This document shows, one piece after another, positions 4,261 to 47,871 of a stretch of DNA of 64,000 nucleotides. Origin of the DNA: a virus (Duplodnaviria; Caudoviricetes); IMG/VR virus record IMGVR_UViG_3300028591_000072, positions 224,001 to 288,000 of that record. The stretch is one strand, 5' to 3'. The notes below the pieces were generated by a model. The model did no database searches and had not been told where the DNA came from. It worked only from the letters and a program-made list of their open reading frames with translations. Each line of letters starts with the position of its first letter. Within the stretch, counting starts at the first letter, position 1. The position numbers were made by a program, and so were the translations under genes.

Positions 4261-7200
4261 ATGGCAAAAACATATAATCAGAAAATTAATAGAAATACTG
4301 CTTGGGGCGGTGATATGTCAACAAGTGGATTACCTGTTGCTGGTGGTAGGGTTCAAGAATTTATAAAAGAAGAACTAAATGGGAAGGCTGGTGCGTTCTA
4401 TAGGCCATCTGGCGGAAATTTTGTATATTGCTTTGCTACAAAAGAAGATAGGGATACATATGCTGATGCATCAAATAAAGATGAGTATGAACATCTTATA
4501 ATTGACAGATTTGAGACTGAATCGAATTATAGTGTTTATATCAATCAAGACACACTTGTACTTTCAAAAAGTGTTATTGAGGGTTCAACTGGAAATACGG
4601 TTGAATTTCAATTTAAAATCACTGATAAGAATGGGATGGTTTCTGACTCAAAAGCGAGTATTGTTTTTACGTTCTTGGCTTCTGGAATTTTAAAAAAATA
4701 TACAACTGAGGTTCAGGTTAAGTCTGAAGGGTGGACAACTGTTGTTAGCGATGTTATTGATGAGTATTTAAGGAATGGTGAAAATAACATTTCTGTAACA
4801 ATAACAGGACTTTCCACTAAGACATCTACTCAATTTGTGATGACCTATAATGTGTTTGATTTGGAATTTAAGACAATGTTTCAATATAACGTTCCGAAAT
4901 ATGGGAGCGTTTTACAAGTTCCATATTATATAAAGTGTACTGAAACAAAATATTTGGAGTTTTATATTGATGGATATGAAGTTGAAAGCGTTGAAAGCCA
5001 AACAATAAGTGATGCTGTCAAGGATGGTACTGCAAATATAAGCATTGGAAACTTGGAAATTGGCCAACACAGTTTGCAGGTTAGGGCGTATGTAAGGGCT
5101 AAAGACGGAACAAAATTCTATTCTCAAATACATTATTACACATTTGCAAAAGAAGGAAACACGACTCCATCATTTTTGATGTCAATTAAGTTGGATAACA
5201 CCCAAGATATTGCAGTTGATGGAAACTTGCTGACGATAAATTCAGGACAGTTTGAACAGATTTCTTTTGATTGGTCAATGTATGATTATTTGTCAAGAAA
5301 ACTGGTTGTTAATTTTGAATATGATGGAAATATAATTTCAAAAAATGTTTTTACATTAAATGGAACTATAAGCGAATTTAGTTTCAGGCCATTTAATTAT
5401 GGCGATGATAAATATCTTAGGATTTTTTCTGTTGATGAAGATAACAATATTGTGTTTGAACATAATATAGTCTTCAATGTTGCTGGGAATGATAGTGGAC
5501 TTAAAGAAACTGTTGATGGGCTGTTGCTAAAATTAACTTCAAATGGTAGAAGAAATACGGATGAAGATAAAGATGTGTGGTCTTGCGTTGGAAATGACCA
5601 AAATGTCTATAGTGCAAATTTCCACAATTTTGCATGGAATGCACAACAAGGATGGAATCCTGAATATGAGGCACTTGTTGTATCTGACCAAGCATATGTT
5701 GATTTTAACATTAGACCAATGATGACTAATAATGGAATTAATAATGCTGGATGGGAAGAAAATGGTGGAACATTTGAAATTGACCTTGAAACTTTTGATA
5801 TTGAGGATGAAAATGCTGTTATATGCGAGTGCAAAAGCAATATAGAAGGAAAATCAACAGCATATTTTAGAATTACAGCAACAAATGCTGAATTTTCAAC
5901 TGCTGACGGTAAGAAAATAAATACGAGATATAAGGATAATGAAAGGCTGAAAATTGCATTTATTGGAAATAAGAAGGGAACGCATGAAGACGGTAATATG
6001 ATTTATATTATGGTTAATGGCGTTCTTGAGCGTGCTGCAATGTATTCAAATACAGATAGAATTTGGTCTGATGAAATATTGAGGATTGGTTCTGGCAATG
6101 GTGGGTGCAAAATACGTGTTCGCTCAATTCGTGTTTATGACCGTGCAATAAGTGTTGATGAAGAATTTAACAATTATGTCGTTGATTCTGAAAATTCTCA
6201 AATAATTTATGAGAAAAACAATATTTTTAAAAAAGGGACAAATGAAGTTGGGTTTGATGAAGTCGCCAATAAACTTCCTGTTATGATTTTTACGGGCAAT
6301 ATGAATGACCTGGTTAAAAATGGGCAAGATAAACAATGGAGATATTTTGATGTTGAATATATAAACAGACAAGAACCTGAAAGGAATTTTGTTTCGTTTA
6401 ATTGTCAGATGAAATTGCAAGGAACCTCTTCGTTAGGATACCCAAGAAAAAATTTCAAATTGAAGACAAAGGATAAGTTGGCAACTAAAGAATATTACGA
6501 ATCAAGTAATTATGTTCTTGATACTGAAGAAACTGAAGTTGGAAATAGAAGGCTTAGGAGTAAAGTTACTGGAAATTTAATTGATTTTGGGGATTTTACC
6601 GGAAATTGTTTTACTTTTGGTAATTTTTCAAGCGACAATCCGTTAAAGGGAGAATTATTAAAGAAAGGAAAATATAGATTTAGGGCTAATAGCCATAAAG
6701 CGGACAAATGGACATTGAAAGCCGATTATATGGAGTCATCTTGCTCACATAATGTTGGTGCAGGAAGAAGCTGGAATGATATTTTCGAAAATACTGAACT
6801 TAAGATTAGTAATTATGCTGGATATGTTAATAACACATATAAAGATACAGCACTTGTTAATAGAAACGATTATAGCGAATACACAAAGAATGGTATTTCA
6901 TATAAAATCAATATGAATACAGATTCTTTTAGGTCTCAAAAAAATTATGTTTGTAGGACTGACGCACAGAAAATATGCTGGTCTGAAGGTGCTGATGATG
7001 TTAGGACTGCAATAGATGGATTTCCAATGGTTTGTTTCTATAGAACATCTCATGCTGAAAATAATCTTGTGTTCATGGGGCAATATAACTTCGTAAATGA
7101 TAAAGGTTCTTATGAGGTGTTTGGGTTTGAAGATATTGAGGACCCTAATAATGAAGATGTTATGATTTATGATGCTTCTCAAGTTGAATGTTGGGAGGGC

Positions 7201-34950: not shown

Positions 34951-36048
34951 GTGTCAAAAATATCTTACTTTAATCAAGTAACTCCTTGGAAAAGAGTGCT
35001 TAATGCGGCAAGAAGAACAATAGGGAAGGCTCCGTTAGATAAGGAGCCTTCAGATTCTTGGAAAGCAAAAATGCTTCTTGCTGAACATAGCCCAATTAGA
35101 CTTCTTGAATTTGATTGGGTTTGGGATGACATCCAGCAATGGATTACAACACACTTAGTAAGACACCATGAAGGATGCGAAAAGTTTGTTCATTCACAAA
35201 GACAAGACAGACGTGAACTTGGCTGCTCACGTGATGAATTGCCACAAGGTGCTTTAAATGATATGGGAATGTCTGCTAATGCGCAAGCATTGATTAATAT
35301 TTCAAGAAAAAGATTATGTTCTTGCGCATCAAAAGAAACTAGAGAGGCTTGGAAACAGGTTGTAGAAAAAATAAGAGAAATTGACCCTGTATTAGCAGAT
35401 AAGATGGTTTGTGAATGTTTGTACAGAAGTTTCTGCCCAGAATGGATGAATTCGTGTGGCTACGTAAATACCCCACAATATCAGCTTGCAAGAGTTAGAT
35501 ATTTAAGAACCGATTATAATGACCAATGGACTCCAATTAAAGGATATGAAGGCTTATACGAAATATCTAGATTTGGAATTGTAAGAAGTATAGAAAGAGT
35601 TGTTCCTGATGGCGAAAATCGTTCAAAAACAATTCACGGAAAAGAGATAGCAATCATTCCAAATAAAAACAGAAGAGGATATTGTTATGTTCATTTGTTT
35701 AAAGAAGGAAAAGAAAAGAGTTGTTTATTGCACAGACTTGTAGCTGAAACATTTATCCAAAATCCTGATAACAAACCAGAAGTAAACCATATAGACGGCA
35801 ATAAATATAATAACCAGGTATCAAATCTTGAATGGGTTACTTCGGAAGAGAATAAACAACATGCGTGGAAAAATAAACTTTGCAATGCAGAACATAGAAA
35901 AACTAAAATAAAATGTATTCAAAATGGAGTTGTTTATAATTCTGTAGTTGAATGCTCTAAATTGCTTAACGTTGACAGAAGAAGTATTTTTAGACAATTA
36001 AAAGGAGAAAAAGAGTATGTTAAAGGATATTCGTTTGAAAGAGTTTGA
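34951..36048 (+). CDS. thyX: ThyX-like flavin-dependent thymidylate synthase fused in frame to a NUMOD4-HNH homing endonuclease
   Basis: EHSP, HLVRH..HSQR, RLC..A..ETR; then WTPIKGYEGLYEISRFG (NUMOD4), HRLVAETFI..VNHIDGNKYNN..NLEW (HNH) and a NUMOD1-like tail. Confidence 0.8.
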   Translation: MSKISYFNQVTPWKRVLNAARRTIGKAPLDKEPSDSWKAKMLLAEHSPIRLLEFDWVWDDIQQWITTHLVRHHEGCEKFVHSQRQDRRELGCSRDELPQGALNDMGMSANAQALINISRKRLCSCASKETREAWKQVVEKIREIDPVLADKMVCECLYRSFCPEWMNSCGYVNTPQYQLARVRYLRTDYNDQWTPIKGYEGLYEISRFGIVRSIERVVPDGENRSKTIHGKEIAIIPNKNRRGYCYVHLFKEGKEKSCLLHRLVAETFIQNPDNKPEVNHIDGNKYNNQVSNLEWVTSEENKQHAWKNKLCNAEHRKTKIKCIQNGVVYNSVVECSKLLNVDRRSIFRQLKGEKEYVKGYSFERV

Positions 36049-38876: not shown

Positions 38877-39033
38877 GGTGCTCTGGCAGATATGGTATAT
38901 GCACTGGACTGAATACAGAGTAAACTGTAAATCAAACTCTATAGTAATTCAGTTGGTAGAAACGTGAGTCGGTGGTTCGAGTCCGCCCTATAGAGCAAAT
39001 CCAGCTAAAGTGGTTCGAGTCCACTGGGCACCA
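38877..39033 (+). tRNA. tRNA-Phe(GAA) with 84-nt anticodon-loop intron (~38914-38997) containing a nested tRNA-like domain
   Basis: Removing the insert gives CTGGA-CTGAAAA-TCCAG; acceptor GGTGCTC/GGGCACC. Confidence 0.8.
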
Positions 39034-39124
39034 CAACTAAAATAACTAAATTGGTACAGATTAAAAAATAAAATTAAACGACAATGATAAAACGAAAGTA
39101 CATAAAACGAAAACATTTAAGTAG

Positions 39125-39368: not shown

Positions 39369-39429
39369 CAAAAATCTGGCACGGTTTTTGATAATGTGCA
39401 ATGGTTCTTTGAAAAAATGAAAAAAAATT

Positions 39430-39947
39430 CATTGTGCATAGGCGGGAAACCCCTATGTAGAATCTCCTAAATTCGGTGGAAATCCTTTGGTGTGCTGGTT
39501 AAACTCCAGCCTTGTAGAAATACAAGAAGAGATTTGTCTGACTAGAAAGCACTAACCAATAATGTGTAAGGACTATACCGAGCGAAAATAAGATGTAAGG
39601 GTTGAATAAACAGGTCGGCACTTTAATATGTAGAACAGAAAGAGTGAATTACATCCACAGAAACTTACTATAAACTTATAATCGTGTAGACTGAAATGGG
39701 AGATACCTAAGTTGATTTTAGCCTCATAGGAGTAATATTCGAGTAGGGAGTATAAACAGGCACTATGTCTGTCTCACTGAAAGAAGGCTATCTTGCAAGA
39801 TTTCAATATGGTAATGTCAGTTAAGACTACAACAAGCATTTAGCTCCTTGGTTCGACTCCAAGGGATGCCTGTCACGTGTTGGAAAAGGTGTCATAAGTG
39901 GGTTCCACTTGTTTGGCTATGGTAACATAGTGTGGTAAATATCAATG
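39430..39947 (+). ncRNA. Free-standing group I ribozyme-like RNA, copy 1
   Basis: P2 hairpin, P3 tctcc/ggaga, P4 ttcggt/accgag, P5 tcctt/aagga, P7 gactg/cagtt, ctatggtaacatag hairpin; no host gene visible. Confidence 0.7.
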
Positions 39948-39959
39948 TAATTTATATAT

Positions 39960-40034
39960 GGCCCCGTAGCTCAATTGGATAGTAGCGACAGCCTTCTAAG
40001 CTGTAGGTTCTGGGTTCGACTCCCAGCGGGGTCA
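39960..40034 (+). tRNA. tRNA-Arg(TCT)
   Basis: ACAGC-CTTCTAA-GCTGT. Confidence 0.92.
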
Positions 40035-40072
40035 CAAATTTAGTTCTTTGAAAAAATTGAAAAATACAAATT

Positions 40073-40673
40073 CATTGTGCATAGGCGGGAAACCCCTATG
40101 TAGAATCTCCTAAATTCGGTGGAAATCCTTTACCTAGATATGAAAAGAAGTAGGAAAATTCATCCTAAGTTTCATTAATTTGAAATAGGTTCCGCAACAC
40201 TAACAAATAATGTGTAAGGACTATACCGAGCGAAAATGAGAATAGAATGAAAAGCAAGTACAAGCAGAAGCAATTGCCTCCTTGTAGACTTCTTTATTTC
40301 TTTATATGATACTTATTGGTGGCAATTCGTAAGTATCATTTATTCTTATAAACGTGTAGAGACTGAACGGGAGATGCCTAAGTTGGAATTATATTAAGAC
40401 GATGATAGCCCAGGATTCAAAAGAGCACCCATAATGAATGGGAGGTGGTTGGTATGAAATCCAACAATTCGTTGATAATATTACTTGCAAGAATTTCAAT
40501 ATGGTAATGTCAGTCAAGACCACAATAAATAAACATACATGTCTAATGGTGAAGACAAGCGACTTGAAAAGAAAGGCTGATGTCCGAGAGGAGACGCAAA
40601 TGTGGCATTGATGTGGGTTCGATTCCCACTATGTTTGTTCGGCTATGGTAACATAGTGTGGTAAATATCAATG
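40073..40673 (+). ncRNA. Free-standing group I ribozyme-like RNA, copy 2, with two tRNA-like inserts
   Basis: Same core as copy 1 (P7 gagactg/cagtc); tRNA-like cassettes at ~40398-40474 and ~40531-40637. Confidence 0.7.
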
Positions 40674-40686
40674 TAATTTATATATT

Positions 40687-40859
40687 ACTCCTATAGTTCA
40701 AGGGATAGAACGGAAGTTTCCTATACAAGAGTAAACTTGTTAAAATCAAAACTTCATGTTGGTGAAGATGGTCACACGTGCGTTAAAATGTCTACACGAT
40801 GGTTCGAGTCCATCACATGAAGCAAACTTCTAATCTTGGTTCGAGTCCAAGTAGGAGTA
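40687..40859 (+). tRNA. tRNA-Arg(CCT) with 101-nt anticodon-loop intron (~40723-40823) containing a nested tRNA-like domain
   Basis: Removal gives GAAGT-TTCCTAA-ACTTC; acceptor ACTCCTA/TAGGAGT. Confidence 0.82.
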
Positions 40860-40913
40860 CAAAAAAAAATAACCAGATGAAAATTCTGGCACGGTCTTTG
40901 ATAATATTGCAAT

Positions 40914-42427: not shown

Positions 42428-42580
42428 GCCTCTTTAGTATAAAGGTTATTACACTTGACTTGTACATCAGAAGGAACTGATTAAAACCAAGCTATATTTG
42501 AAAGACAAAGCATATGCTGAAACAGCGATAGTTTCATATAGCTCAATCATGAGATGGCAGTTCGATTCTGCCAAGAGGCT
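42428..42580 (+). tRNA. tRNA-Thr(TGT) with 81-nt anticodon-loop intron (~42464-42544)
   Basis: Removal gives CTTGA-CTTGTAA-TCATG; acceptor GCCTCTT/AAGAGGC. Confidence 0.8.
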
Positions 42581-42704
42581 CTAAAATCTTCGAGGGATTG
42601 ATGCTTGGTTTAGTGTTTTGGTTACCTGACGAGGTAAACTGAGACAATAATAAGGAGTAAGAAGGAAGCATGCACTTGGCTTACTGTGTAGAAGATTTTT
42701 TAAT

Positions 42705-43279: not shown

Positions 43280-43366
43280 AGGAAACATGCAGCAATCTTT
43301 CTCAGGTTGAAAATTTTGACTGTAAATCAAATAAGGTGGTTCGAGTCCACAAAAATATTGTTTCCT
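43280..43366 (+). ncRNA. ACAGCAA-module variant (GCAGCAA) carrying a Tyr(GTA) anticodon arm and T-arm
   Basis: AGGAAACA/TGTTTCCT stem; TTTGA-CTGTAAA-TCAAA; GTGG-TTCGAGT-CCAC. Confidence 0.7.
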
Positions 43367-43782: not shown

Positions 43783-43855
43783 GGGGGTATGGTTGAATGG
43801 CTACAATGCGGGCTTGTCACGCCCTGTGGTGCGGGTTCGAATCCCGTTATCCCCG
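43783..43855 (+). tRNA. tRNA-Asp(GTC)
   Basis: GGGC-TTGTCAC-GCCC, G73. Confidence 0.9.
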
Positions 43856-43934
43856 CAATATTGGGGTTTCGAAAAAAAACGATAAAATTGCGTATAATTT
43901 GGCTTTCGAAACTATTTATAATAAAACAAAGTTT

Positions 43935-44654
43935 ATGTGTGATGGTTTAAATTTTAAATGTAAACAGTGTGGCGTAACATTTGAAAAAACAAAGTCTGAG
44001 TTATCAAAAAACCATAATGTTGTTCCTGTCTTTTGTTCTAAAGACTGTCAACAAAAATGGTATAAAGAAAATTCGTATATAACTGTAGAATGCAAATGTT
44101 GTGGAAAAGAATTTACAATAAAAAAAGGTGAATACAATAAAAATAAAAACAAAAACTTTTTTTGTTCACATTCTTGTGCTGCTAAATTTAATAATAAAAC
44201 TAGAACAATAAAAAAAACTGTTTTTGAAAAAGATAACAAAATTAAAATATCTAAAAAGAAAGAAGATATATATGGTGTATGTCCAATTTGCGGAAATAAA
44301 AAATTTAAGAAATCAATATTGTGCAAAAAATGTAGAAACGAGCAAAAAAGAAATAACATAAAAAAGAGAACACTTGGATATTTTATTGAAGGAAAAAAAT
44401 ATTTGGGTTCAAAATGTAATGAAATAAGAAAAGACGCAAAGAGAACAATTGAAGAAAGCTGTGTCGAAAAAACTTGTGCATATTGTCATAACCACGAGTT
44501 TGATGGCATATTAGAAGTACATCATATAAAAGGAATTTTGGAGTTTGATAAAAGCACGACAATAGAAGAAATAAATGATATTAATAACCTTGTTTGGTTA
44601 TGTCCAAATCATCACAGGATGCTTGAACTTGGATTAATTAAACTTGAAAAATAG
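43935..44654 (+). CDS. HNH endonuclease with Cys-rich N-terminal repeats
   Basis: CxxC..FCSxxC repeats; EVHHIK..NLVWLCPNHH; start moved to Met47 because the listed start overlaps tRNA-Asp. Confidence 0.85.
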   Translation: MCDGLNFKCKQCGVTFEKTKSELSKNHNVVPVFCSKDCQQKWYKENSYITVECKCCGKEFTIKKGEYNKNKNKNFFCSHSCAAKFNNKTRTIKKTVFEKDNKIKISKKKEDIYGVCPICGNKKFKKSILCKKCRNEQKRNNIKKRTLGYFIEGKKYLGSKCNEIRKDAKRTIEESCVEKTCAYCHNHEFDGILEVHHIKGILEFDKSTTIEEINDINNLVWLCPNHHRMLELGLIKLEK

Positions 44655-44919: not shown

Positions 44920-44992
44920 GGGGAGTTCATTTAGCGGTTTAGGATGCAGGTTCGACAGACCTGTCACTATGGTTCGATTCCATAACACCCCA
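44920..44992 (+). tRNA. Atypical tRNA, GAC anticodon (Val?) with C33
   Basis: CAGGT-TCGACAG-ACCTG; one A-A mismatch in the acceptor. Confidence 0.6.
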
Positions 44993-44997
44993 CAATC

Positions 44998-45225
44998 GGT
45001 TTGTTGTTGATAATCAAAGGAAAGTTGAGTTGGACATGGGTTCGAGTCCCATATGGTCCACTAAGTAATTGATTTTCAAGTAAATACGGGCCATCTTGGT
45101 TTTGACAGCTAATGAGTACAATGGAAGTAGACATCCGAGATGCCATAAAATAACTGGCAACGAAAATTATGCTTATGCTTATGCAGCAGCCTAAGGCAGT
45201 GCATTGAGCAGGTTGGCAGCGAACC
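44998..45225 (+). ncRNA. ssrA: Permuted (two-piece) tmRNA
   Basis: T-arm and ATGGTCC-A (to 45060) precede GGGCCAT-CTTGGTTTTGAC (45088); G3-U70 pair; tag GNENYAYAYAAA* at 45156-45194 after ATAACT. Confidence 0.9.
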
Positions 45226-45239
45226 AAATCGCTGCACAT

Positions 45240-45315
45240 GGTCGGTTCGTCTAGTCTGGCCTAGGACATCAGGTTTTCATCCTGGGAATCATGGGTTCAA
45301 ATCCCATACCGACTA
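45240..45315 (+). tRNA. tRNA-Glu(TTC)
   Basis: TCAGG-TTTTCAT-CCTGG. Confidence 0.9.
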
Positions 45316-46770: not shown

Positions 46771-47063
46771 AAAAACTCAATACTAACGAGTATAAAGACA
46801 GGCGTACAGCCAGAGGCGTAAACGGTAGCAGTAAGTGCTAAACTGTTAAAATAAAGGCAATAAGGGAGAGGTAACGTTACTCCTTAAAACTAGCGAATTT
46901 CAAGTAGATTCATGGATTATCGAAAGGCTTTAGAAATGTTAAGGAAAAAGACCTTATGCCAGCGAATGAGAACCACATCGGTTATGTGGCGCACGATGAA
47001 ACGTGTGGGCTGAAAAAGTGCCAGGGTTCAACTCCACTTGTCATTTTAGGAAATCCATTTTAC

Positions 47064-47138: not shown

Positions 47139-47196
47139 CGCTAATTTCGACTTTACTTTTTCACCCTTTTTACTATTTATGTATAAAAGTGGTTTT

Positions 47197-47871
47197 ATGA
47201 AAGAAAAAGAAATAGATAAAATAAGCGTGGAACAAATAAACGAAGCTTTTGAAAAGTGTGGTAATCTTAAAGAAGTTGTTTTTTATTTTGGAAAAAAATA
47301 CAATGGCGGAAGTCAACGATTTGTATATGCTTTAATGGAAAAAGCCGGAATAAAGTATTCTGATTTTTTCAAAAAAGGGAAAGAGTATTATAAAAAAAAT
47401 GTAAAGTATTGTGAAAATTGTGGAAAAGAATTGCCATATGAAAAAAGGAATAATAAATTTTGTTCTTCTTCTTGTGCAGCATCTAAAAACAATCTTGGGG
47501 TAAGAAGAAACTTTAATCCAAATAAACCAATAATACAAACAAAAGAAGAAAAAGAAAGACTGAAGTTGGAAAGATGGAAGAATGGAGAAAATTTTTTAGT
47601 TGGCTCTTGTGAAATACCAGTTTTTATAAGAAGATATTTGTTCAGTAAAAACGAATGTAAATGTGAGCGATGTGGGTGGGGTGAAATAAATGAGGACACA
47701 GGAAAAATTCCGTTGCAAATACATCACATAGATGGTGATTGCACAAACAACAAAGAAGAAAATTTACAACTACTTTGTCCAAATTGTCATAGTTTGACTA
47801 ACACATTTGGTTCGTTGAACAAAAAGTCAAAAAGATTCCATAGAAAAAAGAAAACTTTAAAAGATATATAG
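47197..47871 (+). CDS. HNH endonuclease
   Basis: CERCG..LQIHHIDGD..NN...NLQLLCPNCH. Confidence 0.9.
   Translation: MKEKEIDKISVEQINEAFEKCGNLKEVVFYFGKKYNGGSQRFVYALMEKAGIKYSDFFKKGKEYYKKNVKYCENCGKELPYEKRNNKFCSSSCAASKNNLGVRRNFNPNKPIIQTKEEKERLKLERWKNGENFLVGSCEIPVFIRRYLFSKNECKCERCGWGEINEDTGKIPLQIHHIDGDCTNNKEENLQLLCPNCHSLTNTFGSLNKKSKRFHRKKKTLKDI

Follow-up and report, generated by a model that had tools for sequence, protein, structure and literature searches.

Among group I introns, which are known as mobile elements that splice, one offshoot that took on a new role, GIR1, is well described. Introns of subgroup IC3 reside in tRNA anticodon loops, as in the Azoarcus pre-tRNA-Ile type (PMC13168695). 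In GIR1, branching has been ascribed to a shortened joiner without the last two residues of J8/7 and to a P10 helix in the pocket (PMC2219692). GOLLD and ROOL, in turn, are large structured phage RNAs of unknown function near tRNA islands, and GOLLD sometimes holds a tRNA in its variable region (10.1101/2024.12.08.627333). Here, we analysed two large RNAs in a phage tRNA cluster for which a group I origin had been predicted; no published description of an exon-less group I RNA of this type was found in the literature covered, outside which most subscription journals lie.

The window, i.e. the whole 64,000-nt stretch of DNA that was analysed, corresponds to positions 224001-288000 of a 302,581-nt single-contig virus record that is 82% complete. 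The genome is that of a gut jumbo phage of ~303 kb, and a sheep gut DNA run contains 94% of its sampled words, with long exact pieces, and possibly represents the source sample (sequencing runs with small word shares were left out of the analysis). In a cultured phage collection, its terminase has matches at 22-28% only and the first of the two elements has none, and 0 of the 47 pattern hits in bacterial and archaeal genomes parsed as an element of this type. The terminase large-subunit gene is split by an ordinary short group I intron (L196 1511-1771; genome ~93887-94147), which is adjoined by an endonuclease-like ORF on the opposite strand.

The tRNA cluster comprises more than 26 tRNA genes and a permuted tmRNA, and is flanked by tail-fibre and HNH genes. 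The tmRNA is in two pieces at window 44971-45285 and overlaps tRNA-Val and tRNA-Glu, while three free-standing HNH endonuclease genes (window 34951-36048, 43797-44654 and 47179-47871) lie in or beside the cluster. The genome has nine boxA-like motifs, all on the + strand, seven of which are located in or just ahead of the cluster. It also has about 30 sigma54-type motifs (e.g. at window 37866, 39377, 40887 and 40993), which we take to be promoters on the basis of the RpoN consensus, many of them in clusters that precede short genes in the 17-34 kb part of the genome; a sigma70 scan returned 11 sites against 9.5 by chance.

The two elements and their group I (IC3) ancestry

The two elements, copy 1 (~39425-39953) and copy 2 (~40068-40679), are built of five common blocks with unrelated inserts between them. 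At the 5′ end 64/64 nucleotides are identical (E 1e-27) and at the 3′ end 50/51, to which three further blocks are added, so that the near-identical core and unrelated peripheral domains of the original prediction are borne out. Its placement of the elements also holds, as each lies between tRNA genes after a boxA-like motif (39404 and 40043) and interrupts no tRNA or credible ORF. Copy 1 is additionally preceded by a sigma54-type motif, and both the promoter motif and boxA serve tRNA genes too. No third copy was found in the 302,581-nt genome. The parts of the elements, in window coordinates, are as follows.

39377-39392, + strand: sigma54-type, presumably promoter-like motif (TGGCAC-G, 4 nt, TTGAT; after the RpoN consensus) ahead of copy 1
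39404-39414, + strand: boxA-like motif before copy 1
39425-39953, + strand: copy 1, exon-less IC3 group I scaffold, whole, including the closing helix
39425-39434, + strand: copy 1 closing helix, 5′ strand (over the former guide sequence), pairing with 39943-39953
39435-39487, + strand: copy 1 P2 with GAAA tetraloop, then the 5′ strands of P3, P4 and P5
39487-39543, + strand: copy 1 L5 cassette
39592-39674, + strand: copy 1 L6 cassette
39683-39711, + strand: copy 1 P6 3′ strand, J6/7-P7 5′ strand (2-nt deletion), P3 3′ strand and P8 receptor
39721-39789, + strand: copy 1 L8 cassette, 93-94% identical to those of L140, L142 and L143
39814-39823, + strand: copy 1 J8/7 (4 nt) and P7 3′ strand; T39822 makes the G-binding pair a G-U, and A39823 alters the end pair
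39839-39907, + strand: copy 1 L9 cassette with a T-arm hairpin at 39846-39864
39917-39939, + strand: copy 1 GUAA-capped P9 hairpin, P9 3′ strand and former terminal-G position A39939
40043-40053, + strand: boxA-like motif before copy 2
40068-40679, + strand: copy 2, exon-less IC3 group I scaffold, whole; closing helix 40068-40077 with 40669-40679
40130-40191, + strand: copy 2 L5 cassette
40240-40344, + strand: copy 2 L6 cassette, sharing 88.6% identity across 105 nt with the L6 loop of an intact tRNA intron in L025
40353-40375, + strand: copy 2 J6/7-P7 5′ strand (intact-type) and P3 3′ strand
40391-40482, + strand: copy 2 L8 cassette, sharing 97.8% identity across 92 nt with the L8 loop of an intact tRNA intron in L065
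40507-40516, + strand: copy 2 J8/7 (4 nt) and P7 3′ strand, last base A, not C
40532-40633, + strand: copy 2 L9 cassette, a degenerate tRNA-like cloverleaf (Rfam tRNA 25 bits, below the cut-off) with a T-arm at 40613-40629
40643-40665, + strand: copy 2 P9 hairpin, P9 3′ strand and former terminal-G position A40665

The core blocks read as an Azoarcus-like IC3 intron with P2 (GAAA loop), P3, P4-P6, P7, P8 with a tetraloop receptor and P9 (GUAA hairpin), helices that we assigned on the assumption that they follow the Azoarcus structure. At Rfam gathering and E-value thresholds the copies do not match RF00028; because intact long-form relatives are likewise missed by this model, the result is uninformative for group I, and the proposal that the absence of a group I model hit would speak against the original prediction is misleading. 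Short relatives with the same core do match RF00028 (48-50 bits, E <3e-9), and a profile made from them has the two copies as its sole hits in the genome, their cassette-free cores scoring 50 and 59 bits and shuffles giving 0 hits. Scaffold pairs outside P7 are intact at 54/56 and 56/56 in the two copies, and the core is 87-96% identical to that of the nearest intact phage intron. Both copies are descendants of IC3 tRNA introns, without exons.

Neither copy has the guide G or a P1 with a U-G 5′ splice site, in agreement with the original prediction that no such P1 is evident, and no junction of their flanks rebuilds a tRNA. The terminal G is replaced by A39939 in copy 1 and A40665 in copy 2. 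The guanosine pocket in P7 is altered as well, by a G-U pair and the 2-nt deletion in copy 1 and by a G·A at the end pair in copy 2, where the G-C pair is kept. The P7 strands had been read correctly as CAGTT in copy 1 and CAGTC in copy 2, but the G-U at the G-binding pair (T39822) occurs in copy 1 alone, and C is found at this position in all relatives from the same context. Since four of the defining features that were tested are absent or altered, the copies stand outside group I introns as a functional class, yet they are clear derivatives of an IC3 tRNA intron. Judged by these sequences, both are probably non-catalytic, and we hold with moderate confidence that they are stable scaffold RNAs that display cassettes.

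Relatives, shared lesions and closing helices

Pattern scans recovered 60 distinct long-form elements; the family to which they belong is large and consists of Azoarcus-like IC3 introns located in the anticodon loops of phage tRNAs. Forty-six are of the intact type, 12, including both window copies, form a second class, and two (L006 and L015) stand separately, having lost catalytic residues through lesions other than those of the second class. The flanks rebuild a tRNA at a U/...G junction in 38/45 intact-type cases, and in none of the second class except L098, which is seated in a tRNA shell. Both L098 and L015 are core-damaged and still lie in a tRNA body, replacing the anticodon loop, and are possible intermediates between intron and exon-less RNA. 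In three intact-type tRNA introns (L094, L123 and L131), the 3′ strand of P7 is itself interrupted, possibly by a nested intron.

Intact members with non-tRNA exons exist (L092 on the - strand, L019 at 4350-4790, L104 and L048), and the window copies might by analogy be ordinary cis-splicing introns in an unrecognised host RNA. However, these four members keep the 6-nt J8/7, the guide G and the terminal G, which the copies do not, and no tRNA arises from any junction of the copies' flanks, so that cis-splicing is scarcely credible. As the flanks of L092 and L019 form a simple hairpin, splicing there would mainly release the intron RNA.

Members of the second class are set apart by their catalytic strands and splice-site signals. 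J8/7 measures 4 nt in 12/12 of them and 6 nt in the intact introns (43/43), CC at the end of P7 is found in 1/12 versus 43/43, and the terminal G and the guide G are present in 3/11 versus 42/45 and in 3/12 versus 43/45, respectively. A 2-nt deletion in J6/7-P7 is found in nine of the 12, including copy 1. The lesions common to both copies, namely the 4-nt J8/7, C-to-A at the P7 end pair, A for the terminal G and loss of the guide G, had been overlooked in the original prediction, as had the J6/7-P7 deletion of copy 1 and the inserts common to intact introns of other phages. A pattern that contains the lesion retrieved five of the 12 members; seven relatives retrieved by the 3′ end alone all have the short J8/7. 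The second class is spread over about five phage groups; compared with this genome, the proteins encoded next to the element show 92% identity, 44-66% identity or no relationship. A core tree groups the 12 members with a support of 0.86, which is not proof of a single origin, because recombination makes the tree unreliable.

The fold has been kept to a similar degree in both classes, with 4.1% of scaffold pairs outside the catalytic centre broken in the second class versus 5.9% in intact introns. Within the second class, the mean core distance is 11%, the stem under the L2 tetraloop shows compensated pair variation, and the five central pairs of P7 together with the 4-nt J8/7 are nearly invariant. 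Helix alleles private to this class keep pairing in 7/12 cases versus 38% expected under neutrality, a difference that is not significant. Of the proposal that these are domesticated group I scaffolds, the ancestry, the lack of exons and a probable loss of catalysis are supported, and domestication itself is plausible. Folding of the whole RNAs gave z-scores of -1.9 and -2.5 by a method that is blind to the P3/P7 pseudoknot.

The pairing ends (CATTG/CAATG) of the original prediction extend to a closing helix of 10 bp with a bulged U in the window copies, although for these AU-rich ends by themselves the pairing does not exceed that of shuffles (p ~0.1). In every second-class context the ends can pair, through sequences that differ between contexts; against shuffles, p ranges from 0.002 to 0.48, and most helices are individually not significant. 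In four contexts, one of them L006, the helix stops exactly at the old guide position, where a C faces the G of the former U-G wobble. In the window copies, the tail begins to pair 3 nt downstream of the former terminal G; across members this spacer is 3 to 5 nt, and L144 is without the P9 hairpin.

Alternatively, the copies may be functionless relics, passengers in the tRNA cluster that are refreshed by recombination with intact introns of co-infecting phages, with selection acting only against an active core and for harmless folding. This is possible, if somewhat doubtful. A tidy core is explicable without function because recombination with intact introns is constant, and the private-allele test does not reach significance. 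The small deletions, which are located in dinucleotide repeats, and the alteration of the P8 receptor and L2 loop in several members also fit a relic, as do the independent broken copies L006 and L015. On the other hand, a relic would hardly be expected to show one lesion common to about five phage groups in place of a separate lesion in each, two copies kept side by side, or near-invariance of the central P7 pairs and J8/7. Functionless passengers account for the tidy core as well as stable, cassette-bearing scaffolds do, and less well for the spread of the lesion and for closing helices rebuilt with different sequences.

Cassettes, RNA depth and neighbouring tRNAs

Cassettes, mostly of 30-150 nt, occupy the slots L5, L6, L8 and L9. 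Where a cassette is shared between two elements, its slot is retained in 80/83 pairs, and sharing crosses the boundary between intact and broken elements; cassettes of the sub-lineage have matches, among the hits inspected, only in the same slots of family members. In copy 2, the intact J6/7-P7 strand lies between two cassettes shared with intact introns, which fits crossovers inside the conserved blocks, and it was probably re-imported along with the L6 and L8 cassettes. Both this regained strand and the movement of cassettes and core segments between intact and broken copies are also in line with a relic refreshed by recombination. One may speculate that the HNH endonucleases of the tRNA cluster drive the recombination that shuffles the cassettes.

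The cassettes have no common motif. T-loop motifs number 24 versus 1.5 expected and occur in both classes, and 14/206 cassettes score as tRNA at a relaxed threshold; tRNA mimicry is a family-wide trait, present in a minority of cassettes. That the elements carry tRNA mimics, as had been suggested, is therefore true of the whole intron family and not specific to the two copies. The predicted T-arm of copy 1 was located at 39846-39864. Of the two tRNA-like domains predicted in copy 2, the one in L9 was recovered weakly (40533-40637; Rfam tRNA 25 bits versus a cut-off of 29, E 0.14), and the one in L8 was absent by Rfam and relaxed ARAGORN.

In one sheep sample, RNA-run contigs identical to copy 1 and copy 2 have depths of 199 and 144 versus 5-11 for the exact flanking contigs, the copy 1 contig spanning its J8/7 and T39822, and DNA depth is flat across the region (74-93). 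For a relative with the short J8/7 in a second study, the depth is 106 versus ~4 for most neighbouring contigs (one at 56). These values are a weak hint that the RNAs of both copies accumulate, contig depth being no measure of expression and giving neither ends nor strand, and as a stable by-product would pile up too, they are no proof of function. Among the RNA contigs listed, no circle or splice joint of the window copies appeared, and contigs cannot show absence. In an RNA contig from bovine run X19, the terminal G of an intact-type relative is followed directly by the 5′ region of that intron (window 39938 joined to 40084), consistent with an excised intron circle. Elsewhere in the window, raised RNA contig depth was seen in the second study at 46790-47050, and the segment 47866-48100, the ends of which pair, recurs in L144 with 78% identity over 233 nt; both are possible non-coding RNAs with no convincing Rfam match.

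Three neighbouring tRNAs carry inserts after position 36, namely tRNA-Phe (window 38877-39038), tRNA-Arg(CCT) (40687-40861) and tRNA-Thr(TGT) (42428-42581). Each insert consists of a hairpin whose loop is rich in A, a short linker that is likewise A-rich, and a tRNA-shaped domain; the same tRNAs have no insert in some relatives and different payloads in others. Stems with a repeated ACAGCAA motif occur at window 41458, 42301, 43462, 44669, 46105 and 46266, with the variant TGCAGCAA near 43280, and several of them have tRNA-like arms or are set inside tRNA bodies.

These ribozyme-less inserts, and the fact that no RtcB was found in this 82%-complete genome, would accommodate the suggestion that the copies act in trans, splicing or cleaving the interrupted tRNAs of the cluster or those of the host, and the 5′ strand could indeed pair with several anticodon loops at 6/7 positions. 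The suggestion nevertheless breaks down at the splice sites and at the co-occurrence with the element, and we consider it very unlikely. The tRNA inserts contain no group I splice sites of the U/...G kind, as they begin with A and end with C or A. Relatives that carry the element have an uninterrupted tRNA-Arg(CCT) (L137, L141 and L142) or tRNA-Thr (L140). No unique anticodon-loop target of the 5′ guide was found, with 0 tRNAs matching at 7/7 and eight at 6/7. Moreover, the catalytic strand is shortened and defective, and the tail of the same RNA masks the guide. The terminase intron was also considered as a trans target and rejected, as it has its own core.

The interpretation of the copies as stable scaffolds starts from what was observed: group I ancestry, absence of exons, a short active-site strand, loss of both splice-site signals, retention of the scaffold and cassette exchange in four loops. 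The copies would be transcribed together with the tRNA cluster and released when host enzymes process the flanking tRNAs. They would then adopt the group I fold, in which the 3′ tail, paired with the old guide sequence, closes and protects the ends, and the released RNAs would accumulate. Most speculatively, their purpose may be to show cassettes, some of them resembling a tRNA elbow, as decoys or as binding sites for host proteins. Excised introns of the relatives might already do the decoy job, which the copies could perform without interrupting a tRNA.

Comparison with known systems

The second class represents a sub-lineage that has been spreading, with exons and catalytic residues dropped and the fold kept, and the dozens of intact relatives serve as natural controls. 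The four exchangeable slots mark natural insertion points on a stable RNA scaffold. Should the copies prove functional, they would illustrate a route from ribozymes to large phage RNAs of unknown function, and would point to a payload role for the inserts in phage tRNA introns.

Compared with IC3 tRNA introns, of which the long-form phage family was seen in 46 loci, the copies have the same helix order P2-P9, the GAAA tetraloop on P2, the 11-nt-type receptor in P8 and a GNRA-capped P9. They differ in lacking exons, the U-G splice site and the terminal G, in their 4-nt J8/7 and changed P7 end pair, and in having their ends closed by a helix.

Like the lariat-capping ribozyme GIR1, the copies have an IC3-related core in which the joiner leading into P7 is shortened; in both, the 3′ tail pairs with the 5′ strand and exons are absent. 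By analogy, they could be ribozymes with a new chemistry, in which nucleotides of the 3′ tail fill the space left by the shortened J8/7 and cleavage or branching takes place close to the 3′ end of the RNA itself, a scenario that we regard as improbable. Its active site would conceivably consist of the 4-nt J8/7, a re-registered P7 and the tail paired over the guide, and the copies would then be, at long odds, another case in nature, after GIR1, of an IC3 intron evolving into a ribozyme of different chemistry, and the first such case from a bacterial virus. The precedent of GIR1, whose joiner lacks the last two J8/7 residues and whose pocket holds the P10 helix (PMC2219692), is matched by a J8/7 two residues short and by a tail that pairs 3 nt past the former terminal G in the window copies; in members with the J6/7 deletion, P7 could, by inspection, be restored through a U-A pair together with a bulged A. 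However, GIR1 keeps its terminal G, which is A in both copies and G in 3/11 members, and the variable spacer to the helix (3 to 5 nt) and the missing P9 hairpin of L144 count against this chemistry as well. Furthermore, GIR1 has a P15 pseudoknot in place of P1-P2, whereas P2 and P8 of the copies are canonical and intact, which leaves no P15, and GIR1 is compact and caps a downstream mRNA with a 3-nt lariat, whereas the copies are followed by a tRNA gene and most contexts have no mRNA downstream.

The copies resemble GOLLD and ROOL in being large structured phage RNAs near tRNA islands. The GOLLD and ROOL covariance models did not match them even at E 5, though ROOL was detected in another locus. 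Their fold is unrelated to that of GOLLD and ROOL, and they differ from both in having a traceable ribozyme ancestor.
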